This document shows, one piece after another, positions 251 to 60,675 of a DNA stretch of 64,000 bases. Position 1 is the stretch's first letter; the number at the start of each line of letters is the position of its first letter. The notes beneath the pieces were generated by a model, which was given only the letters and a program-made list of their open reading frames with translations, was not told the origin of the DNA and ran no database searches. Both the position numbers and the translations under genes were made by a program. The stretch is from Candidatus Babeliales bacterium. GTDB lineage: Bacteria > Babelota > Babeliae > Babelales > JANWKD01. The stretch lies in NCBI GenBank assembly GCA_963701665.1, contig OY969622.1, positions 992,001 through 1,056,000 on the forward strand, read 5' to 3'.

Positions 251-520
251 TTAGTTGTCTTCACAACATGAGCCTGATGCGCCCGGAAATGGCTCAGAAG
301 AACACATACATAAACAATAAAGAGGAAGACAACAGTGTAGATAGCAAGTTTCTTCACAACACGATGTCTCGCGGCTCAAGCGAGAACTGGTTGGCGGCCT
401 TGGCCATACCATAGAATTTTGAGGTGGTTTAGCAAAAGGAGTTTCCTCATCTTCCATAGCATTCAATAACGTGCATAGTATCCCCATACTTATCATAACC
501 ATAGTTTTTTTCATGCTCAC
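251..520 (-). CDS. Small exported Cys-rich protein
   Basis: Signal-peptide-like N-terminus ending LLNA-MEDEE; C-terminal SCCEETCYLHCCLPLYCLCMC; GGGGTGAG upstream of the start. Confidence 0.6.
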   Translation of the reverse strand: MSMKKTMVMISMGILCTLLNAMEDEETPFAKPPQNSMVWPRPPTSSRLSRETSCCEETCYLHCCLPLYCLCMCSSEPFPGASGSCCEDN

Positions 521-590
521 CCCTTTTTTTTAAAGCTTATCCAAAAATTCAATCAACATTCAACACACGAGAAAAATATGCCTAGGAAAA

Positions 591-760
591 GACGTCATTC
601 TGAGACAACGAAGTTGTCGTAGGAATCCAGTCTAATAAGATTTTTCATTTTAAAGACTGGATCCCTACGTTCCGCCTTCGTTAAAACTTCGGCGGACAGG
701 CCGCTTCTTACGGATCCTGCGAAGCCTTGGCGAAGTAGGACGGCTCCTCAGGATGACGCC
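591..760. repeat. Composite palindromic REP/RPE-like element with nested small hairpins
   Basis: Outer stem GACGTCATTCTGAG...CTCAGGATGACGCC, inner ATCCAGTC/GACTGGAT; nested CCGCCTTCGTTAAAACTTCGGCGG and TCCTGCGAAGCCTTGGCGAAGTAGGA units. Confidence 0.8.
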
Positions 761-890
761 TCTGTTTCAAATAATAATCTCCAAATTTTGTATCCAATCG
801 ATTATTAAAATACAAAATTCACAATTCAGAATTTTCTAACTTTAAGATAAGCTCTTATATGTTACAAAACTATCAATCCACAAAAAACAT

Positions 891-1931
891 TTGATCATGA
901 GAAAAAATATGTATGTTAGCTTTGTCGGGGGAAAATCGGGGGGCCATGTGCTTCCCTGCATTGCAAAAGCACAAGAAATAATTGCACACAATCCAACAAC
1001 AAAAATACTTTTTTTTACCAGTCGCTCATCATTGGATAAAAAAATTATCGAGAACTTCACCTGTATTGAGCAAACAGTATTTTTGCCGATGCAGGCTATG
1101 GTGCTAAAAAAGTGGTGGCGAATGCCGCAGTATGCAGTACAATTTCTGCGCTCGTTTTTTATAAGTATTGTTGTTCTTCACCAGTATAAACCACAGACGC
1201 TTATAAGTATGGGCGGCATCATTTCAATACCCGTTTGCATTGCAGCTAAGCTGCTTGGCATTCCCATCATGTTACAAGAATTAAATGTTATTCCTGGAAA
1301 AGCAATCAAAGCGCTCGCACCACTCGCAACAGAAATTAGCGTGTGCTTTCAAGAAACGCGCGCCTATTTTGCTCCGCGCGCATGCATTAAACGCGCGTAT
1401 CCACTGCGTTTCAAACCCTCGCTCGCCCATATAACAAAAAAGCAAGCGTGTGCACATCTTGGTTTGCGCGATGATATTCCCATCCTCATGATTATTGGCG
1501 GTTCGCAAGGATCGGTATTTTTAAATACCCTTATTAAGCGTTGGCTTGCAGCAAAACCGAGCACGACGCCATTACAAGTTATTCATCAATTGGGCGATTC
1601 AACATTAAACGAGTGGCAAGCATTGTATGCAGCGCATGGCATTCCTGCACTCGTTTTTTCTTTTAATCACGCGATCGAGTACTGTTATGCTGCGAGCGAT
1701 CTTGTGCTTTGCCGTGCGGGTGCAGGCACCTTATTTGAATTATTGTTTTTCCAAAAAAAATGTATCACCATTCCTCTTGAAACAACGGAAAATAATCATC
1801 AACTTTTCAATGCACAAGCTTTTGTGCATGAATATCCTCATATGATACGCATGTTCCGTCAGCAAGAATTGCACGATATAACATCATTTTCTCAGCATCT
1901 GATTACCGATCTTAGACAGGCCAATCAGTAG
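891..1931 (+). CDS. murG: Lipid II N-acetylglucosaminyltransferase MurG
   Basis: GGKSGGHVLP, GGSQGS, RAGAGT and HQLFNA motifs of GT28 MurG; true start may be a few codons later. Confidence 0.92.
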   Translation: MIMRKNMYVSFVGGKSGGHVLPCIAKAQEIIAHNPTTKILFFTSRSSLDKKIIENFTCIEQTVFLPMQAMVLKKWWRMPQYAVQFLRSFFISIVVLHQYKPQTLISMGGIISIPVCIAAKLLGIPIMLQELNVIPGKAIKALAPLATEISVCFQETRAYFAPRACIKRAYPLRFKPSLAHITKKQACAHLGLRDDIPILMIIGGSQGSVFLNTLIKRWLAAKPSTTPLQVIHQLGDSTLNEWQALYAAHGIPALVFSFNHAIEYCYAASDLVLCRAGAGTLFELLFFQKKCITIPLETTENNHQLFNAQAFVHEYPHMIRMFRQQELHDITSFSQHLITDLRQANQ

Positions 1932-3774
1932 GTTTTTGTCCTGCAAATAAAATATAATCATTGCTGCCACCTTGATAGAGTAAAGGATAATTTTCAATAC
2001 TCACTGCTGGCCCTGATACAAACAAATCAAATCCATGTTGTCCTGTAATACTGAGTGTTTTACCATCTTTCTCAAAAAAACCTGGGGCCCCATATTGTTG
2101 TATCATAGTCATAATTTCTTGTGTGACGCCGGCTTTATTTTTTGAATAGTTCTTCATCCAACCGAGCACTTTCTGATTGAGCGTTTTGGCAAAGGCATCA
2201 AGATCTTCTGTCGCCTTCACCTTTTCAGTATCAATAAATGAGCCGAGCAAACCACTGACTTGATCTACGCGAATTAACGCTGGCGGTACAACGTAATAAT
2301 ACGGCCCAAAACCAAGCCCCCGTGGACTAAAATAATCCACCAGCACTACAACACCTTGTACGCCAGAGCCTTTTGTATCATCAATGATACCCAGTTGATT
2401 TGGTGGAATAGTAGTAAGCACAGTCTTTTCATCAAACCTAGGTATATTGATAGTTGGTTCAATAGCTTCTTTTCCTATAACACCATCACTTAGACGTTTA
2501 AGAAATGCTTTTGCTTTTGCATCATCATTAGTAAGTACAAAAACAACAAACAATGCTGATTTTTTTTCTGAAACCTGTGGCCGTATAATATTGAAGGTCG
2601 CAACATCGCTACCTTTTATTTTTTGTTGGTACGTAGAATCATGGGTAATATAGGAAATCCACATCTGCCCTTCAGGCTCATATGGCTCATCAGTATTTTT
2701 TGGATTCAGCTTTTTATATTGGTCAGACGATTGATACCACACGTGACATTCAAGAGGATTAATATCGCGCACAACATTTTTGGTAGAGTCTTTGCCAACT
2801 GTTTGCGTATAATTGCCGATCCCTAATCCTTGCATGCCGGCATCAAGTCCTTGGCTGCCTTGAAATACTTCGTAAGTATATAACATCGGGTCAGCTGGAA
2901 CATAGGTAGGGGCCTTGTTGGGATCTTTGCTTGGTGCTTGTTGCATACCACAAATAGCGAGTGGCGTTAATGGTAATGAAACGAATGGTTTACCATTTTG
3001 CAAAAATGTTAATGAACGTTTTTCACTGCTATCCTTTGCAGGTCGTATAGAATTTTTGACCCAACTATCAGAGCTGAGCAAACTAAAGGTATCAGGTTCG
3101 AGGGTTACAACATAGGTAACGCCATTTTTCATGTATTGCAATGAAACTGCTTGCGTTGCAGAATTCAAGAACACACCATTAAATTCTGGTGTTGTTGTTT
3201 TAATACCAAGATACTCCACTTTAGGGATTGTTCGATCACTATACGCACGATAATGATAAATATTTTTTGCATCGGGGTAGGCTATATTTTTTCGAAAGAG
3301 AGAATTCCAATTTACGGGATAGGGCGGCTTACCACTTGAACTATATGATTCATATAAGAATTTATTATTGACATCCCATTGCACGGCAAATTTGAAATAA
3401 AGATCCATATGCCAGAGTGGGCCATTTTCTTGACCACCTATATTTCCATACGGGTCAACCTTAAAAGCACGCGTTATATCACCATCAATTTCTATCCCAA
3501 CAAATTTTTTGACATCTTCTATCGCTGCATTCATGGGCCCTGGGGAATCATTCCAAAACATAATTGAGTAGACGCAACCAGCTTGTAAACATTTACCCGA
3601 AAATGATTCTGCAATACCAGTACCAAAATTTACGGCATAATCTTTCACGGTGCCCCATGCATCAGTAAATGCACCCGTTAATTCATCTACATCATCGGCG
3701 TATGCACTCGTGATGCTTAAAAAGATAAGACTGCATAGCCATATGCGCAGATACCCTACGAAATTTCCCTTCAT
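1912..3774 (-). CDS. Exported hypothetical protein, 620 aa
   Basis: Long ORF with AGGAG RBS and signal peptide ending AYA-DD; overlaps the murG stop convergently. Confidence 0.75.
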   Translation of the reverse strand: MKGNFVGYLRIWLCSLIFLSITSAYADDVDELTGAFTDAWGTVKDYAVNFGTGIAESFSGKCLQAGCVYSIMFWNDSPGPMNAAIEDVKKFVGIEIDGDITRAFKVDPYGNIGGQENGPLWHMDLYFKFAVQWDVNNKFLYESYSSSGKPPYPVNWNSLFRKNIAYPDAKNIYHYRAYSDRTIPKVEYLGIKTTTPEFNGVFLNSATQAVSLQYMKNGVTYVVTLEPDTFSLLSSDSWVKNSIRPAKDSSEKRSLTFLQNGKPFVSLPLTPLAICGMQQAPSKDPNKAPTYVPADPMLYTYEVFQGSQGLDAGMQGLGIGNYTQTVGKDSTKNVVRDINPLECHVWYQSSDQYKKLNPKNTDEPYEPEGQMWISYITHDSTYQQKIKGSDVATFNIIRPQVSEKKSALFVVFVLTNDDAKAKAFLKRLSDGVIGKEAIEPTINIPRFDEKTVLTTIPPNQLGIIDDTKGSGVQGVVVLVDYFSPRGLGFGPYYYVVPPALIRVDQVSGLLGSFIDTEKVKATEDLDAFAKTLNQKVLGWMKNYSKNKAGVTQEIMTMIQQYGAPGFFEKDGKTLSITGQHGFDLFVSGPAVSIENYPLLYQGGSNDYILFAGQKPTDWPV

Positions 3775-7969: not shown

Positions 7970-8866
7970 ATGAAAATAAGTATCAAAAATTATTTTGTTA
8001 TTCTGTTATTGTACTCGTCACTTTCATTCAGCATGGAACAACCTGAACGAGCGTTAACACGTGAACTTGCTCAATTAAGAAATGCATTAAATACTTTGGA
8101 ACAAAAACTTAAACTTACAAAACAAGGTCCTCAAGAAGAATTCTTAGATGCTGCTTCTTTAGAACGATTACCCGATGAAGTAATCCTACTGATTATTGAT
8201 GAAAGAATACCTCACCATTTTGAAAATGCTCAACAAATAATTAACACAATAAATAGTATGTTATCATTTGTTAATACGAGTAAAAGATTCAAGGAACAAT
8301 TTGAAAATTATGTAAAAACAAAACTTAGTAGAGCATTACAAGCAAGTAAGGAAATTTCTGTAAAACCTAAATATCCAGGCTTTGCGGAACATTTAGAAAG
8401 AAATCCAATTTTAAAAGAACAACAGAAAATAATAAATGAAGCGTTATTGCTAGCATTCCAAGCAAATAATCTACCTGCTTTAAGAATACTTCTTGAAAAT
8501 GGTGCCAATGTTGATACAGAATATATAGAGGGCTTACAAAACCTTACGTTACTTATGATAGCTCTTGCACAACAAAATATAGCCAAAGTAAACTTTTTAC
8601 TTTCCTTTGTTAATGAGAAAAATGGAAATGCGATTCTTAATCATCGAACGATCAACTCTGATGAAACCCCGCTTCAAATTGCGATAGAGAATAATTTCGT
8701 AGAAGGTATCGAAGCATTATTTAAAGCAGCTCTAAAAAATTATGTAAGAGAACTGGACCCTAACTTAACACCGAATCGAATACAACAGATTCACGGGCTT
8801 CTTTGGCCAAAATTAATGGAATTTTATAATAAATATAATGTTCGCGTAATGAGGTATTGGACCTAG
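7970..8866 (+). CDS. Exported ankyrin-repeat protein with F-box-like motif
   Basis: Signal ending SFS-MEQ; SLERLPDEVILLII; LLENGANVD, TLLMIA and ETPLQIA ankyrin motifs. Confidence 0.75.
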   Translation: MKISIKNYFVILLLYSSLSFSMEQPERALTRELAQLRNALNTLEQKLKLTKQGPQEEFLDAASLERLPDEVILLIIDERIPHHFENAQQIINTINSMLSFVNTSKRFKEQFENYVKTKLSRALQASKEISVKPKYPGFAEHLERNPILKEQQKIINEALLLAFQANNLPALRILLENGANVDTEYIEGLQNLTLLMIALAQQNIAKVNFLLSFVNEKNGNAILNHRTINSDETPLQIAIENNFVEGIEALFKAALKNYVRELDPNLTPNRIQQIHGLLWPKLMEFYNKYNVRVMRYWT

Positions 8867-11969: not shown

Positions 11970-13052
11970 TTATTCGATTACTTCTGATATATCAACAATT
12001 TCCTGAAATCCTTGTTCGTTAGAATCTTTATCTTCTGCTAGTTGGGCAAGGTCATCATACAATTTATTTTTTTGGGATGTGATAACTTGTATTATGTCCT
12101 CTACTTTTTTCTGGTCATCACTGGAATATGTATGTTGTTTATAGAATTCTCGGCCAGGTTCGCCTCGCCATTCTTTAACTATATAAGGCAAACACAAACA
12201 ACCCATTCCTCCACATACAAAGGTGCTAATTCCACCGATAATAGCTATCGCTACTCCAAGATTTTCATCAACCAGACATGCCACTGCGGTACCGACACCT
12301 ATACTGCAGCACCCACATAGACAACAAAGACAGCCTGGAACACGGGCACAAGAACAATTTTCTTCAGCCTCATAGCTTTCAAGACGCTTTTTAAAATATT
12401 CCAATATTCCTATTCGTATAGCATAAAAATCAGAACGAGTAATCGCTACTTTGGAACCAGCGCTTAATTCGTTCCATTTTGTTGGCGTTCTTTTGGAGAA
12501 TTTTTTTAATTTTTTTTCTATTAAAACACGATCAAGAAGATCCGTATTTGCCGTATAATCATTGCGCCTCAAAAATGGAATGCCACTGGGACCTACCATT
12601 AGTTGATTTAAGGAGCGTACATCTTTAGAAAAGGAATATAATTTATTTGATTCTGACCCATATTGAGTATGTTCAAAAAAATGTATCATTTGATAACCAA
12701 ACTTTTCTGATGTAGGATCATCACGATGTTCACAAAGATGCTTTACAAATGCTGTTTCTACTTTTGCAAAAACTTTATCACTTGGATAAAAGCTATTAAG
12801 TCTTATTAAATAGTTAAGTCCTCTATTATTTCCAGGCAAAAAATCAAAAATCATTTCCTTTACTTCATTAGGCATTTCTGCAAGCGTTATGGTATCGATT
12901 GATACATCACTATAGCCTAGGTAATTTTTCAGCTTTGCTAGCAAACCGGTTTGTTCTGTCGGTTCCTCTTGTTCCTCCATTGAATATATATAAGCTGTGC
13001 TAGCCAACACGATGCTAAGCATCATTCCTGTTATTATATTTTTAAAGATCAT
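11970..13052 (-). CDS. Exported protein with F-box-like motif and Cys-rich hydrophobic hairpin (paralogue 1 of 3)
   Basis: Signal ending IYS-MEE; TLAEMPNEVKEMIFDFL; CLCCLCGCC-containing two-helix segment; similar to the next two genes. Confidence 0.7.
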   Translation of the reverse strand: MIFKNIITGMMLSIVLASTAYIYSMEEQEEPTEQTGLLAKLKNYLGYSDVSIDTITLAEMPNEVKEMIFDFLPGNNRGLNYLIRLNSFYPSDKVFAKVETAFVKHLCEHRDDPTSEKFGYQMIHFFEHTQYGSESNKLYSFSKDVRSLNQLMVGPSGIPFLRRNDYTANTDLLDRVLIEKKLKKFSKRTPTKWNELSAGSKVAITRSDFYAIRIGILEYFKKRLESYEAEENCSCARVPGCLCCLCGCCSIGVGTAVACLVDENLGVAIAIIGGISTFVCGGMGCLCLPYIVKEWRGEPGREFYKQHTYSSDDQKKVEDIIQVITSQKNKLYDDLAQLAEDKDSNEQGFQEIVDISEVIE

Positions 13053-13073
13053 GATTATTCTTTTTGAGAGTAG

Positions 13074-13130
13074 ATTATTGAATCGTATAACGAACTTGAA
13101 TTAACAAAGCTGCTGGTAAAGTTATCGTAA
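13074..13130 (+). pseudogene. Orphan copy of the last 18 codons of the HAD phosphatase gene
   Basis: Translates IIESYNELELTKLLVKLS* versus IIESYNELELSKLLVKLS* at 11911-11967. Confidence 0.85.
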
Positions 13131-13132
13131 CG

Positions 13133-13969
13133 CTATTCAATAACCTCAACTTCCCCTTCGATTTTAAGATAATTTAAATTCGTTTGAGCTTGGTTAATTG
13201 ACTGTACTATGGTGAGTATTTTTCCATCCACTTGTTTCTCAAAAATATTGCGACTCTTTCGATCGATCTCAGCGCATCGTTGTGCCATATCTTCACAAAA
13301 AAGACATGAAACTCCCCCGAGACCTATTTCCAGAAGACCCGTAGCTAACACCCATGCTCCTGTTAGCGGATCGAATAAAGCTAATAGGGGAACAGCTGCA
13401 ACTGTCTGGGAACATCCACACAGACAACAAGAACCTCCAATAGCAGTGTTCAACAAGCAGGTCGCCTCACTGTGATAACTCTCGATTCTTTTTTCAAAAT
13501 AATTGAGTATTTTCGCGCGAAGCGTATAAAAATGAGAACGCGTGAGTTCTTTCTGGGTGCCCGCGCTTAATTGCTGCCATTTTTTTGGCGTTGCGATACA
13601 AAATGTAGTTAACTGATTTTCTATTGCCCTCTCATCCAGATCATCAACGCTTACTACATAATCATGAAACCTCAAGCAAGGAATGTCAGGAGATGGTATT
13701 AATTCATGTAAGGAACCTACATCATCAAAAATACTATTTATGTCCTCTTTGGATAAATTTTTAAATTTTTCCGTTATGTGACAGGGCAATGTTTTTACTA
13801 ACTTATCATTGTCTGCACAAGAAAATTTTTCTCTTAATAGTTCGATATTTTCAAGATACACATCACTTTCAAGATGCTCATCATGCTCATCTTTTTCCAT
13901 CGAATATACATAAGATGCAATCAACATCATGCTAAGCATCGTTACTTTTGTTATAGCTTTGCATATCAT
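13133..13969 (-). CDS. Exported protein with Cys-rich hydrophobic hairpin (paralogue 2)
   Basis: Signal ending VYS-MEK; shares DV.SL..LI, LSAG...TRS.FY..R..IL.YF.KR.ESY and terminal EVIE with paralogue 1. Confidence 0.7.
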   Translation of the reverse strand: MICKAITKVTMLSMMLIASYVYSMEKDEHDEHLESDVYLENIELLREKFSCADNDKLVKTLPCHITEKFKNLSKEDINSIFDDVGSLHELIPSPDIPCLRFHDYVVSVDDLDERAIENQLTTFCIATPKKWQQLSAGTQKELTRSHFYTLRAKILNYFEKRIESYHSEATCLLNTAIGGSCCLCGCSQTVAAVPLLALFDPLTGAWVLATGLLEIGLGGVSCLFCEDMAQRCAEIDRKSRNIFEKQVDGKILTIVQSINQAQTNLNYLKIEGEVEVIE

Positions 13970-13993
13970 AATTATCCTTTTGAATTTGAAGAA

Positions 13994-26296: not shown

Positions 26297-26317
26297 AAAG
26301 AAATATTTTTATCAGAT

Positions 26318-27037: not shown

Positions 27038-27101
27038 TTTCTGATCTATAAAAAAAGAAAGCAGATCAGTTAGCATAAAAATCATCAAGGACTTTTTCAT
27101 A

Positions 27102-27830: not shown

Positions 27831-27881
27831 ATAATGCATTAAAAAAATGAACGAGCAATATAAAGAAAAACTTAGATTTTT

Positions 27882-30690: not shown

Positions 30691-30779
30691 TTTAATGAAC
30701 GGCATAGACCGTTGAATTAGCAAAGCAAAGGTATGAAGAATAAAATGCATGTCATTCTTTGGCTAAGGCTCGTGAATGA
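30691..30779 (+). pseudogene. Decayed copy of the 3' end of the hydrolase gene 28559-29839
   Basis: A*TVELAKQRYEE*NACHSLAKARE* versus AQTIELAKQRFEEQNACHSLVKTCE*. Confidence 0.75.
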
Positions 30780-50629: not shown

Positions 50630-51655
50630 TTACTTTAATTCACACTCTTTTACTTCAGCTTCACTAAACCTTTTAATGATGTAGGCAATTTCCTGCACAA
50701 CTTCTTCAGGCAATAAACCATAATCTTCTGCAATTTTCTCAACACGGTAACTGAGGTCCCAAAATGGGATATCCGCCCATTGCCTCTTCCATTGTCCCAT
50801 ACAAACATTTGCTTTCATCGCATCTAATTGATCACAACGATGTTTTACCCTGGTTGATGCATCACTATGTTTGTTGTTAAAGCACACATATTCAATGAAT
50901 GAATTTTCTTTTGTATGCAATCGATCTATTTCTTTTGTGACCGCTTTTTTAAAAACACTTTCAGAGGAATTTTTTTGTAAGATAAGTATTCTCTTTTTCA
51001 TAGACTCTAGTTCTTGCTCTAACTCCGATCGAGAACATTTTAATTCGTCATTACATAATTTTTCAACCTCCTCCAGCACATGATCAAGTCTGTTCTCAGC
51101 TTTCCCACACATATCTTTCACTGCCGCCCTATAAAAATCTTCAGAATTTGCTTCGTGGCTTAAAATTCTCCGATGAACATCATCAGTATTATTTTCTACA
51201 TAAGGGTGCACAGCACAATATAAAAAAAAATTCAAACGGGAACAATGATCATCTTGCGATAGCTTAGATGGTGAACCTTCTTTTAAAAAATTTATTCTAG
51301 GCGTACATGCTTTTCCAACTTTTGAGTCTTCATCGTAGAGTGTATCAAAACTACATTCTTCAACATCGTGTTTTCTTAACATTTCTTTAGCCATATGTTC
51401 TTTAGCAATAAGTGATAAAGGACGTACCGGACGCACCTTTCTTAAAGATGATTGGTTTTCTGTTTGGCTAGATTTCTCGAAATTTTCTTGTGTTTCACGA
51501 TTAGCAGATTTTTCTTCTTGTACCTGTTGCACGCCTTCAGTTTTTTCATAAGCTCTCTGCGCTGCCTTGAGCCATTTATCTGCATCATCCTGCATGGCAT
51601 TCAGCGATGTAACAAAAATAATAGTCGGCAGTATAATTTTATACATGCGTTGCAT
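50630..51655 (-). CDS. Array gene 7: shared leader fused to an unrelated non-ankyrin body
   Basis: LNA-MQDDADKWLKAAQRAYEKTEGVQQV leader, then no ankyrin motifs; start placed after the SD-like junction motif. Confidence 0.7.
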   Translation of the reverse strand: MQRMYKIILPTIIFVTSLNAMQDDADKWLKAAQRAYEKTEGVQQVQEEKSANRETQENFEKSSQTENQSSLRKVRPVRPLSLIAKEHMAKEMLRKHDVEECSFDTLYDEDSKVGKACTPRINFLKEGSPSKLSQDDHCSRLNFFLYCAVHPYVENNTDDVHRRILSHEANSEDFYRAAVKDMCGKAENRLDHVLEEVEKLCNDELKCSRSELEQELESMKKRILILQKNSSESVFKKAVTKEIDRLHTKENSFIEYVCFNNKHSDASTRVKHRCDQLDAMKANVCMGQWKRQWADIPFWDLSYRVEKIAEDYGLLPEEVVQEIAYIIKRFSEAEVKECELK

Positions 51656-52706
51656 GCTCATCCCCATTTTTTTGAAATTGTTTGAGTCGATTGTTGCGTT
51701 CTTCTTCAATTAGATAATAAATCGATTTACATGGGCCATCATGCATTTTACATTCTCGAAGATAATCCTGGGCAGTTTTGCCCTCTCTATTTTTAGTATC
51801 AAGATTTATTCCTGCTTTTAATAATGCTTGAGCCGTTCTTATCAAATTGTCACTCGAAGTAAAAAAGATAGGCGCTGGATTGGAAGCCTGCGTTGATAAA
51901 ACGTGAAGTGCTGTTTCATCACTATCATCTACAGAATTGATAGAGATATTTTGTTGTATATAGTACTCTACAAGATCAGATGAACATGAACCCCATGAGG
52001 GTCCGCCTATTGGACTCTTGATTGCGCGATGTAATAAAGTTTCATAACCATTGCATTTGCAATTAACTCTTGCACCGTGCTTAACTAACAGCTCGGCTAT
52101 TTCTCTATTTTCAGCCCAGCATAGTGAAAACATACCAGGAGTAGCTTTATTCGGGTTAGCTTTTTGTTCAAGCAAAAGTTTTAAGAGCGAAAAATCATTC
52201 GCTGCTATGGGTGCAACAAGTGCTCTCGCACGATATTCTTTTGATTTTGCGTTGGGATCGGCACCTGCACACACCCACCCACTTATTTTACAACGAGTCT
52301 TAGGATATTCTTCAAAATTACGATTATCTGTGTTATCACCTAATTGGTTATTTTTTTGTTCTTGAGATAACGAAACTGCTCTTCGAAAGTATCTTTTTCT
52401 TTTAAAATAATCACACGTTAATGGTTGACGTTGCTCAGGACATTCTGAAAACCATGTTTCATGATCATTTTCATCAAAATCGGCTTCATTATATTCTTCT
52501 TGTGTAGCATCTGTGCTTTCTCTTTGCTCAAATTTTTCAAAACTTGCTTGTGCATGGTTCTCTTCATTGACTTGCTGCACACCTTCAGTTTTTTCATACG
52601 CTCTTTGTGCTGCATTCAGCCATTCATCTGCATCATCTTGCATGGCATTTGATGATGATGCAACAAAAATCATCATCAGTATTATAATTTTATACGTGCA
52701 TTCCAT
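51639..52706 (-). CDS. Array gene 6: exported ankyrin-repeat protein (type A, mosaic)
   Basis: Leader, TWFSECP..CDYFK motif, ankyrin repeats, SPIGGPSWGSCS insert. Confidence 0.85.
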   Translation of the reverse strand: MECTYKIIILMMIFVASSSNAMQDDADEWLNAAQRAYEKTEGVQQVNEENHAQASFEKFEQRESTDATQEEYNEADFDENDHETWFSECPEQRQPLTCDYFKRKRYFRRAVSLSQEQKNNQLGDNTDNRNFEEYPKTRCKISGWVCAGADPNAKSKEYRARALVAPIAANDFSLLKLLLEQKANPNKATPGMFSLCWAENREIAELLVKHGARVNCKCNGYETLLHRAIKSPIGGPSWGSCSSDLVEYYIQQNISINSVDDSDETALHVLSTQASNPAPIFFTSSDNLIRTAQALLKAGINLDTKNREGKTAQDYLRECKMHDGPCKSIYYLIEEERNNRLKQFQKNGDEHATHV

Positions 52707-53772
52707 GATCACCACCATTTTTTTGAAATTGCTTGAGTCGATTATTACGTTCTTCTTCAATTAAATCGTAAAGTAATTTACAAGTTTCCTTGGATGATTC
52801 CTTAAAACTTTCATTCTTTTGACATTCTTGAAGCAGACCTTGGGCGCTCTTTTCCCTTATATCTTTGGCATCAATATCTATACCCGCTTTAAATAAGAGG
52901 CGTGCTTTTTTTATAAGCTCTTCATGAGAATGTGCATAACACCTCCCGGATAAAATATGGAGCGCTGTTTCACGAACAGTATTTATTGCATTAATAGGAA
53001 CCTTTTGCTGAATATAATACTCTAGAAGATCCGATCGATAATCTTGATCGGCTGATCTATGCAATAAAGTACCACCCAAACCGTCACAGCATATTTCCAA
53101 TTCTGCACCATGTTTAATTAACAATTCAGCTATCTCTTTCTTCTTTGTCCAATATAGGGGAGGCCTATTTCTACAAATTGTTTCATTTGGATTCAGTCTA
53201 TGCTCCAGTAAAATTTTTATAAGCCAATAATCATTTTGTTCGGCTGGCTCTAAAATTGTACTTAGAAAAGAATGTCTTTTGCCTTTCGTGTTGGGATCTG
53301 CACCCGCACATACCCACCCAGCAGTTTTACAGCGATTTGCAGAATATTCCCTTTCAAACGATACCTTTAACGCACAATCCTTATTTAAATCAGCAAGAAT
53401 ATCATTTTTTTGTCCTTGCGGTAACGAAACAGCTCTTTGGAAGTATCTTTTTCTTTTAAAATAATCACACGTTAATGGTTGACGTTGCTCAGGACATTCT
53501 GAAAACCACGTTGCAGGATCATTTTCATCAAAATCGGCTTCATCATATTCTTCTTGTGTAGCTTCAGGGCTTTCTGCTTGCTCGAGCTTCTCAAGCTTTT
53601 CTCGCGCTTCATGCTGAGCATCTTTTTCTTCATTTACTTGCTGCACACCTTCAGTTTTTTCATACGCTCTTTGCGCTGCCTTAAGCCATTCATCTGCATC
53701 ATCTTGCATGGCATTCAGTAATGATGCAAAAAAAATAAGCATTAGCATTATAGTTTTAGACATACATTCCAT
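52690..53772 (-). CDS. Array gene 5: exported ankyrin-repeat protein (type B)
   Basis: Leader, TLLHRSA, ETALHIL, KAGIDID. Confidence 0.85.
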   Translation of the reverse strand: MECMSKTIMLMLIFFASLLNAMQDDADEWLKAAQRAYEKTEGVQQVNEEKDAQHEAREKLEKLEQAESPEATQEEYDEADFDENDPATWFSECPEQRQPLTCDYFKRKRYFQRAVSLPQGQKNDILADLNKDCALKVSFEREYSANRCKTAGWVCAGADPNTKGKRHSFLSTILEPAEQNDYWLIKILLEHRLNPNETICRNRPPLYWTKKKEIAELLIKHGAELEICCDGLGGTLLHRSADQDYRSDLLEYYIQQKVPINAINTVRETALHILSGRCYAHSHEELIKKARLLFKAGIDIDAKDIREKSAQGLLQECQKNESFKESSKETCKLLYDLIEEERNNRLKQFQKNGGDHGMHV

Positions 53773-54832
53773 GATCACCACCATTTTTTTGCAACTGTTT
53801 GAGGCGATTGTTGCGTTCTTCTTCAATTCGATCATAAAGAAGTTTGCAATTATCATTATATTTTTTACATTCTCGAAGATAATCCTGGGCAGTTTTGCCC
53901 TCTCTATTTTTAGTATCAAGATTTATTCCTGCTTTTAATAATGCTTGAGCCGTTCTTATCAAATTGTCACTCGAAGTAAAGAAGATAGACGCTGGATTGG
54001 AAGCCTGCGTTGATAAAACGTGAAGTGCCGTATCATTATTATCATCTACAGAATTGATAGAGATATTTTGTTGTATATAATACTCTACAAGATCAGGTGA
54101 ACATGAACCCCACGAGGGTCCTCCTATTGGACTCTTGATCGCTCTATGCAATAAAGTTTTTCTCCCATCGCATCTGCAATTAACATTTGCACCATACCCG
54201 ACTAATAATTCGACCATTTCTTTATTTTCAGCCCAGCATAGTGGAGACATACCGGGGGTAGCTTTGTTCGGGTTAGCTTTTTGCACAATCAAAAGCTCTA
54301 AGAGACGAAAATCATTCGCCCCAACGGGTGCAACAAGTGCTCTCGCACGGTATTCTTTTGATTTTGAATTGGGGTCGGCACCCGTACACACCCACCCACT
54401 TATTTTACAACGAGTCTTAGGATATTCTTCAAAATTACGATTATCTGTGTTATCACCTAATTGGTTATTTTTTTGTTCTTGAGGCAACGAAACAGCCCTT
54501 TGGAAGTACCTTTTTCTTTTAAAATAATCACATGTTAATGGTTGACCTTGCTCCGGGCATTCCGAAAACCATGTCGAAGGGTCATTCTCATCAAAAGTAG
54601 CTTCATCATAGTATTCTTGTACTGCAGGACTTTCTGTTTGCTCAAATTTTTCAAAACTTGCTTGTGCTTCATGCTGAGTATCTTTTTCTTCTTTTACTTG
54701 CTGCACACCTTCAGTTTTTTCATAAGCTCTTTGTGCTGCATTGAGCCATTCATCTGCATCATCTTGCATAGCATTTAGTGATGACACAACAAAAATCATC
54801 ATCGGCATTATAGTTTTATACATGCATTCCAT
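53756..54832 (-). CDS. Array gene 4: exported ankyrin-repeat protein (type A)
   Basis: Leader, TLLHRAI, SPIGGPSWGSCS, DTALHVL. Confidence 0.85.
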   Translation of the reverse strand: MECMYKTIMPMMIFVVSSLNAMQDDADEWLNAAQRAYEKTEGVQQVKEEKDTQHEAQASFEKFEQTESPAVQEYYDEATFDENDPSTWFSECPEQGQPLTCDYFKRKRYFQRAVSLPQEQKNNQLGDNTDNRNFEEYPKTRCKISGWVCTGADPNSKSKEYRARALVAPVGANDFRLLELLIVQKANPNKATPGMSPLCWAENKEMVELLVGYGANVNCRCDGRKTLLHRAIKSPIGGPSWGSCSPDLVEYYIQQNISINSVDDNNDTALHVLSTQASNPASIFFTSSDNLIRTAQALLKAGINLDTKNREGKTAQDYLRECKKYNDNCKLLYDRIEEERNNRLKQLQKNGGDHGMYV

Positions 54833-55886
54833 GATCACCACCATTTTTTTGCAATTGTTTGATTCGATCGTTACGTTCTTCTTCAATTAAATCATAAACC
54901 AGGTTACAACGTTCAACCCATTTTTTACATTCTTGAAGCGAGTCTTGGGCAGTTTTGCCCTCTTTATCTTTAGCATCAATATCTATGCCTGCTTTAAGCA
55001 AATATTGAACTGTCTTCTTTAGATCAACATCTGAAATTAAATTTGAGGAATAATTAGCTGAAAGAGCTGAAACATGTAAGGCTGTTCTATTATTTCTATC
55101 TAGAGAATTAATAGGAATTCCCTGTTTAATATAAAAATTTATAAGACTGGGTTGGCGATCACTATTAATTGCTTCGTGTAATATAGTAGTCCCCCAAATA
55201 GTATCTTTAGATATTTTAGCGCCATATTTAATTAATAATTTTGCCATTCGTTTATTTTTAGCAAAATATGATGATGGAACAAATATTATTGTTTTATTAG
55301 GATTGGCCCCATGCTCAAGAACTATTTGAATTACTTCATAATCATCATGATCGATTGGCCTTAAAAGCACATTTCCCGCATCCACCAAATGAAACAAAGC
55401 TACACTAGTATTGGGATTACCTCCTGCACAAACCCAACCGGCAGTTTGGCATCGATTTATAGCATATTCATTATCGTCATCAGGGAATTTATAACGTTTT
55501 ATGAGATGGTGAAGTAAATCATTTTTCTTTCTTTTTGGTAATGAAACAGCCCTTTGCCAGTACCTTTTGCCTTTAAAATAATCGCAACTTAATTCCTTGC
55601 CTTGTGCAGGGCATTCTGAAAACCATGTTGAATAATCATTCTCATCAAAATTAGGTTCATCATATTCTTGTGTAGCTTCGGGGCTTTCTGTTTGCTCAAG
55701 CTTCTCAAAACTTTCTCGAGCTTCATGCCCAGCATCTTTTTCTTCTTTTACGTGCTGCACACCTTCAGTTTTTTCATATACCTTTTGTGCTGCCTTGAGC
55801 CATTCACCTGCATCATCATGCATAGCATTCAGCGATGATGCAACAAAAATAATAGTCGGCAGTATAATTTTATACATGCATTGCAT
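54816..55886 (-). CDS. Array gene 3: exported ankyrin-repeat protein (type B, divergent)
   Basis: Leader, LEHGANPN, TILHEAI, RTALHV. Confidence 0.85.
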   Translation of the reverse strand: MQCMYKIILPTIIFVASSLNAMHDDAGEWLKAAQKVYEKTEGVQHVKEEKDAGHEARESFEKLEQTESPEATQEYDEPNFDENDYSTWFSECPAQGKELSCDYFKGKRYWQRAVSLPKRKKNDLLHHLIKRYKFPDDDNEYAINRCQTAGWVCAGGNPNTSVALFHLVDAGNVLLRPIDHDDYEVIQIVLEHGANPNKTIIFVPSSYFAKNKRMAKLLIKYGAKISKDTIWGTTILHEAINSDRQPSLINFYIKQGIPINSLDRNNRTALHVSALSANYSSNLISDVDLKKTVQYLLKAGIDIDAKDKEGKTAQDSLQECKKWVERCNLVYDLIEEERNDRIKQLQKNGGDHGMHV

Positions 55887-56937
55887 GATCACCACCATTT
55901 TTTTGAAATTGTTTAAGCCGATTATTACGTGCTTCTTCAATCAAATCATAAATCGATTTACATGGGCCATCATGCATTTTACATTCTCGAAGATAATCCT
56001 GGGCAGTTTTGCCCTCTCTATTTTTAGTATCAAGATTTATTCCTGCTTTTAATAATGCCCGTGCCGTTCTTATATAATCTTCATTCGAAGCATATAGGCC
56101 AGATACGTGGTTAGACACTTGCGATGCCACAACGTGAAGTGCTGTTTCATCACTATCATCTACAGAATTGATAGAGATATTTTGTTGTATATAATACTCT
56201 ACAAGATCAGATGAACATGAACCCCATGAGGGTCCTCCTATTGGACTCTTGATCGCTCTATGCAATAAAGTTTTTCTCCCATCGCATCTGCAATTAACAG
56301 TTGCGCCGTGCTTAACTAATAATTCGGCTATTTCTCTATTTTCAGCCCAGCATAGTGAAAACATACCAGGAGTAGCTTTATTCGGGTTAGCTTTTTGTTC
56401 AAGCAAAAGTTTTAAGAGCGAAAAATCATTCGCTGCTATGGGTGCAATAAGCGCTCTCGTACCATATTCCTTCGATTTTGCATTGGGATTGGCACCTGCA
56501 CACACCCAACCGCTTATTTTACAACGAGCTTTAGGATATTCCTCCCGATGACGATTATGTATACTATTGCCTAACTGATGATTTTTTTGTTCTTGAGGTA
56601 ATGAAACAGCTCTTCGAAAGTATCTTTTTCTTTTAAAATAATCACACGTTAATGGCTGACCTTGTTCAGGACATTCTGAAAACCATGTTTCATGATCATT
56701 TTCATCAAAATCGGCTTCATTATATTCTTCTGCGGGCCTTTCTGTTTGCTCACGATTTTCAAACTTTTCTTGTGCTTCATGCTGAGTATCTTTTTCTTCT
56801 TTTACCTGCTGCATGCCTTCAGTCTTTTCATAAGCTCTTTGCGCTGCATTGAGCCATTCATCTGCATCATCTTGCATGGCATTCAGTGATACAACACAAA
56901 TCATCATCGGTATTATAATTTTATACATGCGTTCCAT
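55870..56937 (-). CDS. Array gene 2: exported ankyrin-repeat protein (type A)
   Basis: Leader, TLLHRAI, SPIGGPSWGSCS, ETALHV. Confidence 0.85.
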   Translation of the reverse strand: MERMYKIIIPMMICVVSLNAMQDDADEWLNAAQRAYEKTEGMQQVKEEKDTQHEAQEKFENREQTERPAEEYNEADFDENDHETWFSECPEQGQPLTCDYFKRKRYFRRAVSLPQEQKNHQLGNSIHNRHREEYPKARCKISGWVCAGANPNAKSKEYGTRALIAPIAANDFSLLKLLLEQKANPNKATPGMFSLCWAENREIAELLVKHGATVNCRCDGRKTLLHRAIKSPIGGPSWGSCSSDLVEYYIQQNISINSVDDSDETALHVVASQVSNHVSGLYASNEDYIRTARALLKAGINLDTKNREGKTAQDYLRECKMHDGPCKSIYDLIEEARNNRLKQFQKNGGDHAMHV

Positions 56938-57934
56938 GTTCACCACCATTTTTTTGCAGTTGTTTAAGCCGATTGTTACGTTCTTCTTCAATTAAATCAT
57001 AAAGCGCCCTGCAATTATCATTATTCTTCCTGCATTCTTGAAGCATACCTTGAGCAGTTTTTCCATCTTTATTAGCATCAATATCTATATCTATGCCTGC
57101 TTTAAATAAGAGACGTGCTTTTTTTATAACGTCTCCACGAGACTGCACCGTGCACCAATAAGATAACTCATGAAGCGCTGTTTCATTATAATGATTCAGA
57201 GAGTTTATAAAGACCTTTTGTTCGATATAATACTCTAAAAGATCAGGTAATCTTCCTTGCATTATTGCTCGATGCAATAATGTGTTACCACTTTTTGCAC
57301 CTTTCCAATTAACTTTTGCACCATGCGCAACTAATAACTCAGCTATCTCTTTGTTTTTAGCATAGGATAACGCAGGCTCACCTAGGATAATGTTTTTATT
57401 TGGTTTAGCTTTGTGCTCAAGTAAAATTTTTACAAGCCAAAAATCATCATTTTGAAGGGGATCTAACAGTGGCCTCCAGGGTCTTTTGAAACTAATGTTA
57501 GGATTAGCTCCTGCACACACCCAACCGCCTATTTTGCATCGCTGTGTAGAATATTCTGCACAACTATCATCTAACTCATTATTTTTTTGTTCTTGAGTCA
57601 AAGAAACAGCCCTTTGAAAGTACTTTTTTCTTTTAAAATAATCACACGTTAATGGTTGACCCTGTGCAGGACATTCTGTAAACCATGTTGCATGATCATT
57701 CTCATCGAAAGTAGGTTCATCATAGTCTTCTTGTGTAACTTCAGGGCTTTGCTCAAGCGTCTCAAACTTTTCTTGAGCTTCATGCCCAGCATCTTTTTCT
57801 TCTTTTACTTGCTGCACACCTTCAGTTTTTGCAAAAGCTTCATCAGCTTTTCTTAGCCATTCATCTTCATCATGCATGGCATTCAGTGATACGCTCAGCA
57901 TCATTGATACAAAAAATATATATCCCAATTTCAT
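56921..57934 (-). CDS. Array gene 1: exported ankyrin-repeat protein (type B)
   Basis: Own signal ending LNA-MHD; GNTLLHRAI, ETALHEL. Confidence 0.85.
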   Translation of the reverse strand: MKLGYIFFVSMMLSVSLNAMHDEDEWLRKADEAFAKTEGVQQVKEEKDAGHEAQEKFETLEQSPEVTQEDYDEPTFDENDHATWFTECPAQGQPLTCDYFKRKKYFQRAVSLTQEQKNNELDDSCAEYSTQRCKIGGWVCAGANPNISFKRPWRPLLDPLQNDDFWLVKILLEHKAKPNKNIILGEPALSYAKNKEIAELLVAHGAKVNWKGAKSGNTLLHRAIMQGRLPDLLEYYIEQKVFINSLNHYNETALHELSYWCTVQSRGDVIKKARLLFKAGIDIDIDANKDGKTAQGMLQECRKNNDNCRALYDLIEEERNNRLKQLQKNGGEHGTHV

Positions 57935-57951
57935 AAGAATATCTTTCTTTT

Positions 57952-59646
57952 TTAAATGTGAGATACGTAGTTTTGTGCCTTATTATGTTGTTCAATTTTT
58001 TCATGCACAATGCGATCAAGCGTATGCTCACTCATAACTTTATTTTCAGTTGCAAATGCAGCATGCTGCGCATGAATTGCTAATTTTGATATATCACGTC
58101 CTGAAAAACCTGCTGTCTTGTGTGCCATTTCTTGCAATTTTTCTTCTGAAAGATTTTCAATCTTTGCCTCTCTATCCATAACATATTTATTAAAATAGAG
58201 ATTAAGTAACTCTTTACGCCCTAGTGCATCAGGTAATCCAATAAATTCTTTTTGATCAATACGACTTATCGCTGCTGCATCTAATGCTTCTGGTCTATTC
58301 GTAGCCAAAACAAGCATGAACTTTTTGGTCTCGGTTCCGGTGTGCGTTAAGAAAGCGGTTAATAATTTTCTGGTTGATTCACTTACTTTATTTCTTGATT
58401 CTAAAAGAGCATCAGCTTCATCGATAAACAGCAAAAGTCCTTTTGGAGAATTGTCTGCCCATTTAAATAGCTTATTGAGCTCTTTAATTTTCTGATCTTC
58501 AGAAAACTGATCAAAATTTGCGCCTGAAGTAATTGCATAATCTAACCCTGATGAGCGCGCTAATTCTCGTGCCAATAATGTTTTACCAGTACCTGGAGGA
58601 CCATATACTAAAAGGTGACGATGAAATCCATCATTTTTTTGAACATGCTTTAAACCCTGTGCAAGTTCAAGAAGACGATTTTTTGTTGCCTCAGGCAAAA
58701 TAAGCTCGCTAAACGGTGCAACAGCAACAGGTTGTGGCTTGCCATAATTTATTGCAGTTTTGAATGGCGCAAGAAAACGCTGTTGTAATGTTAGGCGCGA
58801 TGTTTCAGTCACAAGAGTCGGCTTTCGCAAAAGCATTGCAACGTGATCACCAACAACTTGCGATCCTTTACGGGAAGCAAAATAGGCAAGGCTGCATCCA
58901 GCAAGGCCGAGGGTGGCGTAGGTAACTTTTTCAGGATCACTTATGAAGGTGTTAAATCCTTGTCCCCATAATTGCAATTTTTCCATCGAGTGTTTATGAA
59001 GCATAGCGGTTTTTGTAAGATCATGCTTTAAGCGTTCTGGCAATGTTTGTTGATCTAATTCTGCTTGGATTTTAGCTTCTTCGACGCGTGTTTTACGCTG
59101 TTCTCTTTCACGTTCTCTCATGCGTTGTGTTTTATAAGATTCTCCCTCTTGCATGAGTTTCCGCGCTAATGCATCCTGGCGTAGAAGAAAATCGTTTAAT
59201 TCATTACCAAAATTAAGATCAACATTTCTCCGTGTACCTGCTTTTGCTTTTATAGTATCTTTTATATATTTTTTATTTCTTTTTTGTGCTAATTGATGTT
59301 CTTCTCTCAGCAATTGCTTTCGTAATTTATGCTCTTCGGCTTGGCGCTCTTTTGCCAATTCATGTTCTTTTTGTGCTTTTGCCATTTCACTTGCCATGCC
59401 CCAACGCCCACGTACATCTTCATGATCTTTCACAAGCTTTAATTGTTCTGCTTTAGCAGCCTCAATGTCCCGTTGGAGTTTTAATTTTTCAACAGTTTGA
59501 TAAAGATCAATCTTTGAATTTGAAGGTGATTCCATATAAACAGCCGCTCGGCTCAGTGCTGTACTCAACCTTTTATCAGAATGCTGCATAGCACCGAGTG
59601 GCAATGAAAGTAAAAGTAATGGTATAAGATAGAAAGTATTCTTCAT
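57952..59646 (-). CDS. ATAD3-like AAA+ ATPase with signal peptide
   Basis: Coiled coil, GQGFNTFISDPEKV, TM, KPTLVTETSR, GPPGTGKT, SGLDYAI, LFKWA..S.KGLLLFIDEADA, FMLVLATNRPE, YFNKYV, GFSGRDI. Confidence 0.8.
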   Translation of the reverse strand: MKNTFYLIPLLLLSLPLGAMQHSDKRLSTALSRAAVYMESPSNSKIDLYQTVEKLKLQRDIEAAKAEQLKLVKDHEDVRGRWGMASEMAKAQKEHELAKERQAEEHKLRKQLLREEHQLAQKRNKKYIKDTIKAKAGTRRNVDLNFGNELNDFLLRQDALARKLMQEGESYKTQRMREREREQRKTRVEEAKIQAELDQQTLPERLKHDLTKTAMLHKHSMEKLQLWGQGFNTFISDPEKVTYATLGLAGCSLAYFASRKGSQVVGDHVAMLLRKPTLVTETSRLTLQQRFLAPFKTAINYGKPQPVAVAPFSELILPEATKNRLLELAQGLKHVQKNDGFHRHLLVYGPPGTGKTLLARELARSSGLDYAITSGANFDQFSEDQKIKELNKLFKWADNSPKGLLLFIDEADALLESRNKVSESTRKLLTAFLTHTGTETKKFMLVLATNRPEALDAAAISRIDQKEFIGLPDALGRKELLNLYFNKYVMDREAKIENLSEEKLQEMAHKTAGFSGRDISKLAIHAQHAAFATENKVMSEHTLDRIVHEKIEQHNKAQNYVSHI

Positions 59647-59664
59647 AAAAAAGTCCCTTTATAA

Positions 59665-60675
59665 TTAATTATTGTGTTCTTTGTGTTTGTTAATCTTTTT
59701 TGCTTCATGCAGACGCTCTTTAAAACGCTCTTTTCTCGTGTAACAGGATGGATGAGAATCAAAGAGTGAAGTTGTTGCTTTTTGCACTTCTTCACGAATC
59801 TCTTTTTTTTCTTTTTTGTTTGCTAAAAAAATGGATGGCGCCATTGCCTCTTCATATCTTTTTTGATCTCTTTTGAAATGATGAATGGCAGCTTGTAAAA
59901 TTTTAGGGTTATCGACAACAACGTTATCATCGGCACGTTGCTCAATATATCTTTGACATCCCATTAACAGCATCAGATTTCCGTACCCTTTTGCAACACC
60001 AAGCGGTAACGCAAGAAGATTTCTGATCCATCGTCTAGTTGGTTTAAAAGGTTTTTTGCAAAAATAATAAAGACCTTCGGTACATAGAGGGATAGCCAAC
60101 CCTAGCGCAAGTTTCTGCTTTGTATCGCAATAATAAACATGATTTGCTTCGTGTCTGTAGATAAATTTCTGTTCAGCTAACTCTTTGTTACGTTGTTTCT
60201 TGGTATAATAATTTTTTCTGGTCCTATTCTTTTCTAAGACTCCCTCCAATTTTGAGGTCACTTCTTTAGTATTTTGATCAAGGTAACTATGTACAAATAC
60301 TGTATTATCAGTGGAACTGGAACCACCTATTCCGGCATCACCTTTGGGCAAAAGAAATCGTTTAATTCTAACACCTTCAGGATTTGCAATATTCTGTATA
60401 GCAAGCTGCTCTCTAATAAACTGTTTGGCATCCTCAGTAGGTTCACCATACTTATCAATATCCCCGTGTAGTTCAGACCATAAGAGGGTTGACTTAGCTG
60501 CAGGAAATCCAGTTGGGGCAAATGCACAGCCATAATGAGCACAGGTTAACGCTGCAGTCCCGATAGTTGCTCCGACCGCTAAACTCCTTTTAAAGAGTGA
60601 TTTTTTCTCCATAGAAAAGGCGCAAGGCGTCATCAATACCATAGCTATAAATAAGCTCATTCCATAACTTTTCAT
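59665..60675 (-). CDS. Exported M48-like zinc metallopeptidase
   Basis: Signal ending AFS-MEK; HEANH, EQRADD, HPS...R. Confidence 0.65.
   Translation of the reverse strand: MKSYGMSLFIAMVLMTPCAFSMEKKSLFKRSLAVGATIGTAALTCAHYGCAFAPTGFPAAKSTLLWSELHGDIDKYGEPTEDAKQFIREQLAIQNIANPEGVRIKRFLLPKGDAGIGGSSSTDNTVFVHSYLDQNTKEVTSKLEGVLEKNRTRKNYYTKKQRNKELAEQKFIYRHEANHVYYCDTKQKLALGLAIPLCTEGLYYFCKKPFKPTRRWIRNLLALPLGVAKGYGNLMLLMGCQRYIEQRADDNVVVDNPKILQAAIHHFKRDQKRYEEAMAPSIFLANKKEKKEIREEVQKATTSLFDSHPSCYTRKERFKERLHEAKKINKHKEHNN

Follow-up and report, generated by a model that had tools for sequence, protein, structure and literature searches.

The window analysed here, a stretch of 64,000 nucleotides from the genome of a Candidatus Babeliales bacterium (GCA_963701665.1; positions 992001-1056000 of the single 1,337,192-bp contig, G+C 37.3%), encodes a series of proteins in which a signal peptide is followed, directly after the predicted signal peptidase site, by Met at position +1 and usually by Glu, Asp, Gln or Asn at +2. 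This arrangement is referred to as the tag and the genome as G000; relatives are labelled by other G numbers. Judged from the sequences, tagged proteins very probably possess genuine Sec signal peptides with a type I cleavage site, followed by a Met-[Glu/Asp/Gln/Asn] end that is selected at the protein level and restricted to certain protein classes and lineages. All open reading frames (ORFs) of the window were read, with two small ones (251-514 and 14845-15165) translated separately, and the 22 junctions between signal peptide and Met listed in an initial annotation of this DNA were all located in the translations. Its count of about 20 unrelated genes requires revision to approximately 21 genes (not counting 33556, an exception), which by reading belong to about a dozen families: seven are paralogues within one array, three are related to each other (11970-14890), two form a pair (29812 and 30752), and the gene at 57952 shares a BLAST cluster with an AAA gene lacking the Met at 20695. 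The strict pipeline described below recovers 15 tagged window genes in 8 BLAST clusters, beside 10 signal-peptide-like proteins without Met. The junctions share a common layout consisting of a short basic N-terminus, a hydrophobic stretch, a small residue at -1, Met and a polar, usually acidic residue. The genes put forward as comparators without Met were also confirmed, namely 1912-3774 (AYA-DD, the hyphen marking the predicted cut), 15256 (LHA-HE), 28559 (VMA-EG) and 40783 (LMG-DE).

The first tagged gene of the window encodes a small Cys-rich protein on the reverse strand (251-514), the translation of which shows a signal peptide starting from 514 and the junction LNA-MEDEE (Met codon 457-455). 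It is followed on the forward strand by an Ank-repeat protein (7970-8866; Ank_2 match) with a 21-residue signal peptide ending in SFS-MEQP (Met codon 8033-8035). The reverse strand then contains an orphan family of three, comprising 11970-13052 (IYS-MEEQ, Met codon 12980-12978), 13133-13969 (VYS-MEKD, 13900-13898) and 13994-14845 (LYS-MDDN, 14782-14780), and a small orphan at 14845-15165 with an MKK-type signal peptide and the junction SHA-MEVAK (15102-15100). If the third family member is read in its longer ORF form (13994-14890), it runs into the 3' end of 14845-15165; starting instead at the signal peptide (14845) removes this conflict, a point in favour of the shorter start. Dense Cys clusters (CC, CxC and CCxxC beside hydrophobic stretches) are located near the C-terminus of the tagged small proteins encoded at 251-514 and 11970-14845, and could function as membrane anchors or acylation sites in the host. 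A large orphan on the forward strand (21815-24577; 920 amino acids from 21815) has the junction NWA-MDQK (Met codon 21899-21901). Directly after it lies a low-GC island (window positions 24001-28000; 27% G+C versus 34-42% around it) containing three paralogous genes for proteins of about 240 amino acids without signal peptides (24574-25296, 26318-27037 and 27102-27830) and one gene for a protein of 341 amino acids, a layout that recalls a putative toxin with an array of immunity genes.

Two paralogous genes on the reverse strand, an orphan without Pfam match (29812-30648) and an Ank-matching protein (30752-31579), both carry the junction SYS-MEEW (Met codons 30576-30574 and 31510-31508). The orphan at 33556-34845 (reverse strand, no Pfam match) reads VLG-MVYD, with hydrophobic residues after the Met, and its earlier description as a partial exception holds: the Met at this junction is read as chance because it is not kept in the homologues of two relatives. 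The product ends in Tyr and is a possible outer-membrane protein. On the forward strand, a WD40-like protein (38304-40457; FYG-MSEP, Met codon 38376-38378) fails the strict site rule through Phe at -3, the sole reason for which it was scored as untagged in the Pfam comparison below. It is followed by a protein that contains a P-loop motif and looks AAA-like on inspection (43143-44531), with a long n-region and the junction TYC-MEDP (Met codon 43254-43256; recognised by inspection, not by the pipeline, and outside the Pfam sample), and by a large orphan (44559-47708; STA-MDNK, Met codon 44619-44621). The array of seven paralogous genes occupies 50630-57934 of the reverse strand, and each copy carries LNA or SNA followed by MQDD or MHD(D/E), the first bases of the Met codons being 51595, 52643, 53709, 54769, 55823, 56877 and 57877. 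Four of the five array members scanned with Pfam have an Ank match, and the signal-peptide DNA of six copies differs by 3-nt indels only and by swaps of one hydrophobic residue for another, such that the frame is kept. Also on the reverse strand, an ATAD3-like AAA ATPase (57952-59646; LGA-MQHS, Met codon 59589-59587) is followed by an orphan (59665-60675; AFS-MEKK, Met codon 60612-60610), the product of which falls into one BLAST cluster with six M48-like paralogues from other parts of the genome. A search for homologues of this protein among 3338 candidates returned one match, from a near-identical strain, and no cross-species alignment was possible.

For the genome-wide analysis, ORFs were called with a codon-usage picker written for this purpose (1284 ORFs), and signal peptides were detected with a rule-based procedure rather than SignalP, requiring an n-region with net positive charge followed by a hydrophobic core of 7-18 residues without charges. 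Cleavage sites were assigned by a fixed (-3,-1) residue rule, which replaced an expectation-maximization-trained cleavage matrix (-5 to -1) that had degenerated to marking where the hydrophobic core ends. The detector over-calls: its 500-520 signal-peptide-like proteins out of approximately 1283 ORFs (~40%) include some cytoplasmic enzymes. The share is similar to the 44% signal-peptide proteins predicted with Phobius in Chromulinavorax, another member of the phylum (PMC6561590). A 50-kb control from E. coli yielded two signal-peptide-like ORFs, which was too few, and AT-rich relatives were used as controls instead. At G000:C1:400365-401696, the match to rpoB has an open frame of only 488-507 amino acids compared to ~1440-1480 in 16 relatives, reflecting either an interrupted gene or an assembly frameshift, and indel errors elsewhere in the assembly could slightly affect the ORF calls.

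Met is the most common residue at +1, accounting for 86.4 of 404 valid sites when weighted (21%) and for 93 of 404 at the best-scoring site, versus 1.8% at non-site positions of the same stretch, which corresponds to an approximately 12-fold enrichment. The excess is also evident from a count that requires no cleavage site, in which Met makes up 10.6%, 10.8%, 5.6%, 6.9% and 5.2% of the residues at -1, +2, +4, +5 and +6 relative to the core end, against a background of about 1-2.7% from +8 to +59. With a wider search range, Met occupies +1 in 165 of 462 proteins with a site; these form 122 clusters (BLASTP E<1e-5, at least 40% coverage), 98 of which are singletons. About one gene in eight of the genome is predicted to encode a tagged exported protein, and the tag recurs in more than 100 unrelated, fast-evolving families. 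The signal peptides of tagged proteins start with ATG in 115 of 121 cases and have Lys as the second residue in 67 of 121.

Among 224 Met-bearing N-termini, the residue at -1 is Ala (77), Ser (42), Gly (38) or Cys (14) in 171 cases, and that at -3 is Leu (65), Ser (31), Thr (26), Ala (21), Ile (17) or Val (16) in 176. The predicted basic n-region, h-region and small residues at -3 and -1 are those of Sec substrates cut by signal peptidase I, and are in register with the Met. At +2, the 165 tagged proteins have Glu (77), Asp (19), Gln (19), Asn (12), Lys (9) or His (7), hence Glu, Asp, Gln or Asn in 127. The cluster-weighted information (118 effective sequences) amounts to 1.20 bits at -3, 2.14 at -1, 1.27 at +2, 0.35 at +3 and less than 0.3 beyond; because it is low from +3 onwards, the tag is considered to be two residues long. 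No C-terminal co-motif emerged from a cluster-weighted comparison of the tagged proteins. Hydrophobic residues are rare at +2 after Met (11/165) compared to +1 or +2 of untagged sites (66/311), and tagged and untagged proteins do not differ in core length (13.3 and 13.2) or hydrophobicity (2.52 and 2.53). Glu at +2 is encoded by GAA in 62 cases and by GAG in 15, the same ratio as elsewhere (21.5% GAG), and because this codon choice is ordinary, the information is held in the protein rather than the RNA, excluding an RNA-level signal such as a Shine-Dalgarno (SD)-like pause site. In the largest cluster (28 ankyrin proteins), Ala, Ser or Gly before the cut and Met-[Glu/Asp/Gln/Asn] after it are kept in 20 members with flanks that have diverged beyond alignment. 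A near-miss, with EER preceded by Ile at +1, was also noted. A DNA comparison of the signal-peptide regions, each with 60 nt of upstream sequence, revealed only 34 similar pairs, 28 of which are similar in the mature part as well, and a shared mobile signal-peptide cassette was rejected. The number of clusters (122) and the persistence within the ankyrin cluster despite its diverged flanks indicate that the Met is selected and not inherited.

Whether the Met could itself be a start codon can be judged from the translation signals. The 16S rRNA tail of G000 reads CACCTCCTT and provides a canonical anti-SD sequence. An SD motif precedes 80 of the 165 signal-peptide starts versus 2 of the 165 internal ATGs, and a G-rich peak is located at -12 to -7 upstream of the signal-peptide starts. 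All 165 internal Met codons are ATG, with no GTG or TTG class, and they are followed by Glu in 47%, Asp in 11.5%, Gln in 11.5% and Lys in 5.5% of cases, whereas the second residue at 331 SD-supported starts of non-exported genes is Lys (21%), Asn (11%) or Ala (10%), and rarely Glu (3.6%) or Asp (1.8%). Furthermore, upstream hydrophobic extensions are not a spurious source of the pattern, because AT-rich relatives give almost none. Translation from the internal Met, which the initial annotation had named as a possible undoing of the pattern, is thus contradicted by both the scarcity of SD motifs and the mismatch in second-codon usage. The signal peptides appear to be translated from their own SD-preceded starts, and initiation at the internal ATG is unlikely. 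Public gene calls for five window genes give the full precursor for two, the internal-Met form for two (one of which also has other shortened starts on record) and neither for one. The calls for 7970-8866 (at the internal Met) and 29812-30648 (shorter starts) omit the signal peptide, with neighbouring genes called in full. Secretome counts from annotated proteomes are biased because some public calls place the start at the internal Met and so miss the signal peptide.

The functional classes of tagged proteins were compared in a Pfam sample of 177 signal-peptide-like proteins with a site, namely all of those contained entirely in the window or in one 20-kb piece of the genome's first 400 kb. 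The 74 tagged proteins match Ank (12), DnaJ (4), M48 (4), AAA (1) and HAD (1), and 52 have no match. The 103 untagged proteins include a secretin, BamD/YfiO, OmpA, a SurA-like rotamase, thioredoxin, PASTA, LspA and transporters, as well as several cytoplasmic false positives; lipoprotein-like junctions (LSG-CGGS and LAG-CTH) also occur among them. Ordinary bacterial families were found for 1 of 74 tagged versus 27 of 103 untagged proteins (Fisher 1.5e-6), and Ank, DnaJ or WD40 matches for 16 of 74 versus 5 of 103 (p 8.6e-4), Fisher values that overstate the difference, since the categories were set after the matches had been seen and paralogues are not independent. With the rule-based detector and Pfam, the tag separates eukaryote-like from ordinary envelope families, in agreement with the class enrichment expected in the initial annotation. 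Homologue pairs between signal-peptide-like proteins of relatives and G000 were untagged-untagged (103), untagged-tagged (14), tagged-tagged (7) or tagged-untagged (5), counts which suggest that the tagged proteins are the fast-evolving ones.

The 74 related genomes at phylum level all belong to the same order. The same pipeline was applied to 100 kb from each of 16 genomes representing 14 families, and counts are given as tagged proteins among proteins with a site. By this measure G000 itself reaches 14/43, and the chance level is estimated at approximately 5% (two or three candidate sites per protein and ~2% Met). The tag is strong in six relatives (G003 21/43, G022 16/36, G020 13/33, G014 13/35, G028 12/36 and G001 7/33) with canonical junctions such as LNA-MEIE and IFS-MEDP, intermediate in four (G018 6/25, G062 4/23, G010 4/28 and G057 6/47) and at background in six (G047 3/45, G058 2/24, G016 1/39, G024 1/31, G005 0/26 and G027 0/28). 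A further, independent sample of 100 kb from four of these genomes agrees (G022 14/46, G047 4/37, G016 0/11 and G024 0/21), and the AT-rich controls G016, G024 and G027 contain 0-1 proteins with Met at +1 per 100 kb. In a partial RpoB tree, G000 is joined with G001, G003 and G014 in one clade (support 99), G020, G022 and G028 are placed elsewhere within a clade of 13 genomes, and the other clade, with four genomes, contains no strong member. The background genome G047 is sister to the strong G022 (support 97), a pair that differs by 7/82 versus 30/82 when both 100-kb samples are pooled. This tree forces at least two changes of the trait, and clustering of the trait on it is non-significant (55 of 500 shuffles as low). 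Every homologue of the ATAD3-like ATPase found in other families carries a signal peptide, the residues around the cut being A-A, A-A, S-A and A-F, and A-M in two genomes. Because the junctions of these homologues vary, the tag is better viewed as a labile habit of a lineage than as a property of particular genes.

Candidates for a protein that reads or modifies the tag were sought in G000 and its relatives. G000 encodes two tandem signal peptidase I genes (S26, LepB; G000:C1:911622-913439) within its reduced 1.3-Mb genome, and most relatives carry at least two copies. A dedicated signal peptidase paralogue was rejected, with LepB copy numbers of 2, 2, 2, 2, 1, 2, 2 and 3 in strong genomes and 1 to ~3 in the others. 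Four GNAT genes were identified (G000:C1:162570-163163, 436754-437260, 502325-503212 and 1319566-1320216), all with hydrophobic N-termini that may represent signal peptides or anchors and place the enzymes outside the cytoplasm. One of them has weak matches (E 1e-4 to 1e-7) in 6 of 7 strong relatives versus 1 of 10 others; a secreted N-acetyltransferase was nonetheless rejected as the reader, as the GNAT matches are generic to the fold and copy number (1-14) does not track the trait. The same applies to a reader of the methionine aminopeptidase type, with two M24 genes in G000, neither of which encodes a signal peptide. The glutaminyl cyclase families PF05096 and PF04389 have no match in G000 (93.6% complete). 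G000 contains a secretin and two T2SSE ATPases, and VirB4, FHIPEP and VipB have no match in this genome. Type II secretion is the only system detected in the cultured Babela, according to the accessible part of its genome paper (PMC4378268).

The most likely of the explanations considered is that the tag acts after export, inside the host cell. The cut by signal peptidase would leave a mature protein beginning with Met-Glu, Met-Asp, Met-Gln or Met-Asn, and a role within the host is favoured because the tag marks ankyrin, J-domain, WD40 and ATAD3-like AAA proteins together with orphans and avoids envelope proteins; secreted J-domain and ankyrin proteins would make sense only in the host cytosol. 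Met-[Asp/Glu/Asn/Gln] is the NatB substrate class of eukaryotic N-termini. A mature end of this kind would be spared by methionine aminopeptidase, would not constitute a Met-hydrophobic degron and could be N-acetylated, such that an effector would carry a native-looking and stable N-terminus in the host. A NatB-class role is favoured as well because the tag matches this class in length and specificity and avoids the Met-hydrophobic class, and the consensus invoked in the initial annotation is matched by 127 of the 165 predicted mature N-termini. To the whole statement, comprising the selected tag and its role as a host-type mature N-terminus of the NatB class, we assign a probability of roughly 0.4. 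The related proposal that the Met-acidic dipeptide is a second address label, read either by the sole outer-membrane export machine or by a host enzyme such as NatB, is put forward only tentatively.

Several points weigh against the proposed host-type N-terminus, in addition to the late choice of the Pfam categories. NatB is known mainly for its action on nascent chains, and acetylation of an imported protein by it would be hypothetical. Stability alone fails to explain the choice of Met, because Ala, Ser and Gly are also stable and liked by signal peptidase. Ankyrin paralogues without Met have Tyr, His, Trp, Gln or Ile as predicted +1 residues, and avoidance of degrons is not general because these residues would be destabilising in the eukaryotic cytosol. 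Relatives with equally large secretomes lack the rule. Finally, the untagged set contains proteins that look host-directed, namely four Ank proteins, three sulfotransferases, two TcdA/B-like glycosyltransferases and a PLA2_B lipase (two GH1 enzymes are untagged as well), and a general export code is weakened because several such proteins are untagged.

The chief alternative is a tag that sorts proteins for export across the outer membrane. The Met-acidic end would be read in the periplasm and would direct its carriers to the sole outer-membrane exit recognised, a type II or type IV pilus-like machine, or to vesicles, with untagged proteins staying in the envelope. It would accord with the secretin and T2SSE ATPases of G000 in a genome without matches to VirB4, FHIPEP and VipB, with type II as the only system of Babela, with the near absence of ordinary envelope families from the tagged set, and with signal peptides of equal length and hydrophobicity in both sets, which places the difference after the cut. 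Precedents for sorting by residues after the cut include the lipoprotein +2 rule and the lipoprotein export signal of Bacteroidetes. Nevertheless, type II substrates elsewhere are recognised in the folded state and need no linear tag, the host-directed-looking proteins listed above are untagged, relatives with similar secretomes do without the rule, and no candidate reader gene was found, as LepB and GNAT copy numbers do not track the trait. On balance, such a sorting tag seems unlikely.

An end that protects proteins is a more improbable explanation. The Met-acidic terminus would resist aminopeptidases or periplasmic quality control and thereby prolong the life of loosely folded, fast-evolving proteins, a purpose analogous to that of the pyroglutamate in the Bacteroidetes Q-rule. 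The predominance of orphans among tagged proteins (52 of 74 without Pfam match) would be compatible with this explanation, as would the protection and higher stability of extracytoplasmic proteins proposed in the accessible parts of the Q-rule papers (PMC5837995, PMC10653852). Against it, housekeeping periplasmic proteins would gain equally and yet are untagged, and no modifying enzyme is implied or was found, both glutaminyl cyclase families being without match. Furthermore, an unmodified Met has no known protective effect.

Similarly improbable, with odds of about one in ten at best in our view, would be fossil starts, i.e., genes once without signal peptides, acquired for instance from hosts or viruses, that were extended upstream and retained their old initiator Met. 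The position of the junction exactly at an ATG, the eukaryote-like domains of many tagged proteins and the near-miss with Ile before EER fit such an origin. It is contradicted by the +2 preference, which differs from that at native starts, by the lack of an SD remnant upstream of the Met (2/165) and by a good peptidase site exactly in register; moreover, the Met persists while its flanks diverge beyond alignment, and the same gene classes occur in sister lineages without it. Dual or internal initiation, with the Met as a second start yielding a cytoplasmic isoform or with an untranslated upstream part, might be suggested by the public calls at the internal Met for at least two of five window genes and by an internal ATG that, by reading, lies ~47 nt after the upstream gene's stop in the array, but is highly improbable given the SD distribution with its canonical anti-SD tail, the exclusive use of ATG, upstream parts with full n-h-c architecture that are conserved as coding sequence, and AT-rich control genomes without the pattern.

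The phylum is almost uncultured and devotes 40-44% of its genes to proteins with signal peptides, and the rule offers a simple mark for the fast-evolving part of this secretome that is probably directed to the host. It bears on the sorting or host-fitness of Sec-exported proteins in a parasite with type II secretion only. If the tentative proposal of a second address label is correct, the host-directed secretome of an entire branch of the Dependentiae would be specified by a code of two residues, one that could be gained and lost between sister genera. The sister pair G022 and G047 differs in the trait, and their comparison could identify the reader of the tag. A published description of the rule was not found in full-text literature searches, which did not cover subscription journals, consistent with the earlier claim that it is undescribed. 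In the accessible parts of the respective texts, the word 'methionine' is absent from the Chromulinavorax (PMC6561590) and Babela (PMC4378268) genome papers, and 'methionine', 'TM6' and 'Dependentiae' are absent from a Q-rule paper (PMC5837995).

Among known systems, the tagged N-termini resemble classical Sec substrates of signal peptidase I in their n-h-c architecture, the -3/-1 rule and an h-region equal to that of untagged neighbours. Met at +1 of signal peptidase I sites is rare elsewhere, in contrast to its approximately 12-fold enrichment here. The likeness to the NatB class lies in the 127 of 165 predicted ends that fit its consensus and in information confined to the same two residues. 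NatB substrates, however, bear the initiator Met of nascent chains, whereas here the Met would be exposed by periplasmic proteolysis and acetylation is hypothetical. In Plasmodium PEXEL and oomycete RxLR proteins, which are targeted to the host, a short motif accompanies the signal peptide, and its cleavage yields a defined N-terminus that can be acetylated. The parallel to PEXEL drawn in the initial annotation is loose: the resulting type of N-terminus is comparable, but the tagged proteins of this bacterium contain no RxL or RxLR motif and undergo a predicted single cleavage by signal peptidase after Ala, Ser, Gly or Cys, with Leu at -3 in 31% (cluster-weighted) and without Arg among the five most frequent residues at positions -8 to -4. 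A further parallel is offered by lipoproteins, whose +2 rule and export signal let residues after the cut set the compartment, with acidic residues following +1; signal peptidase II and the Cys of a lipobox at +1 are needed there, unlike the Met at type I sites described here. A likeness also exists to the Q-rule of Bacteroidetes, a lineage-restricted preference for Gln, cyclised to pyroglutamate, right after the signal peptidase I site of many unrelated exported proteins (PMC5837995, PMC10653852). The Q-rule covers most signal peptidase I substrates, periplasmic ones included. In G000, Gln occupies +1 at 28 of 404 best-scoring sites compared to 93 of 404 for Met, no glutaminyl cyclase family is present, and the trait varies within one order. 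As a lineage-wide rule on what follows a signal peptidase I cut, the tag would be only the second and, unlike the Q-rule, a class-specific one, combining Met with Glu, Asp, Gln or Asn at +2 in roughly a third of signal-peptide-like proteins (165/462) and sparing the housekeeping proteins.

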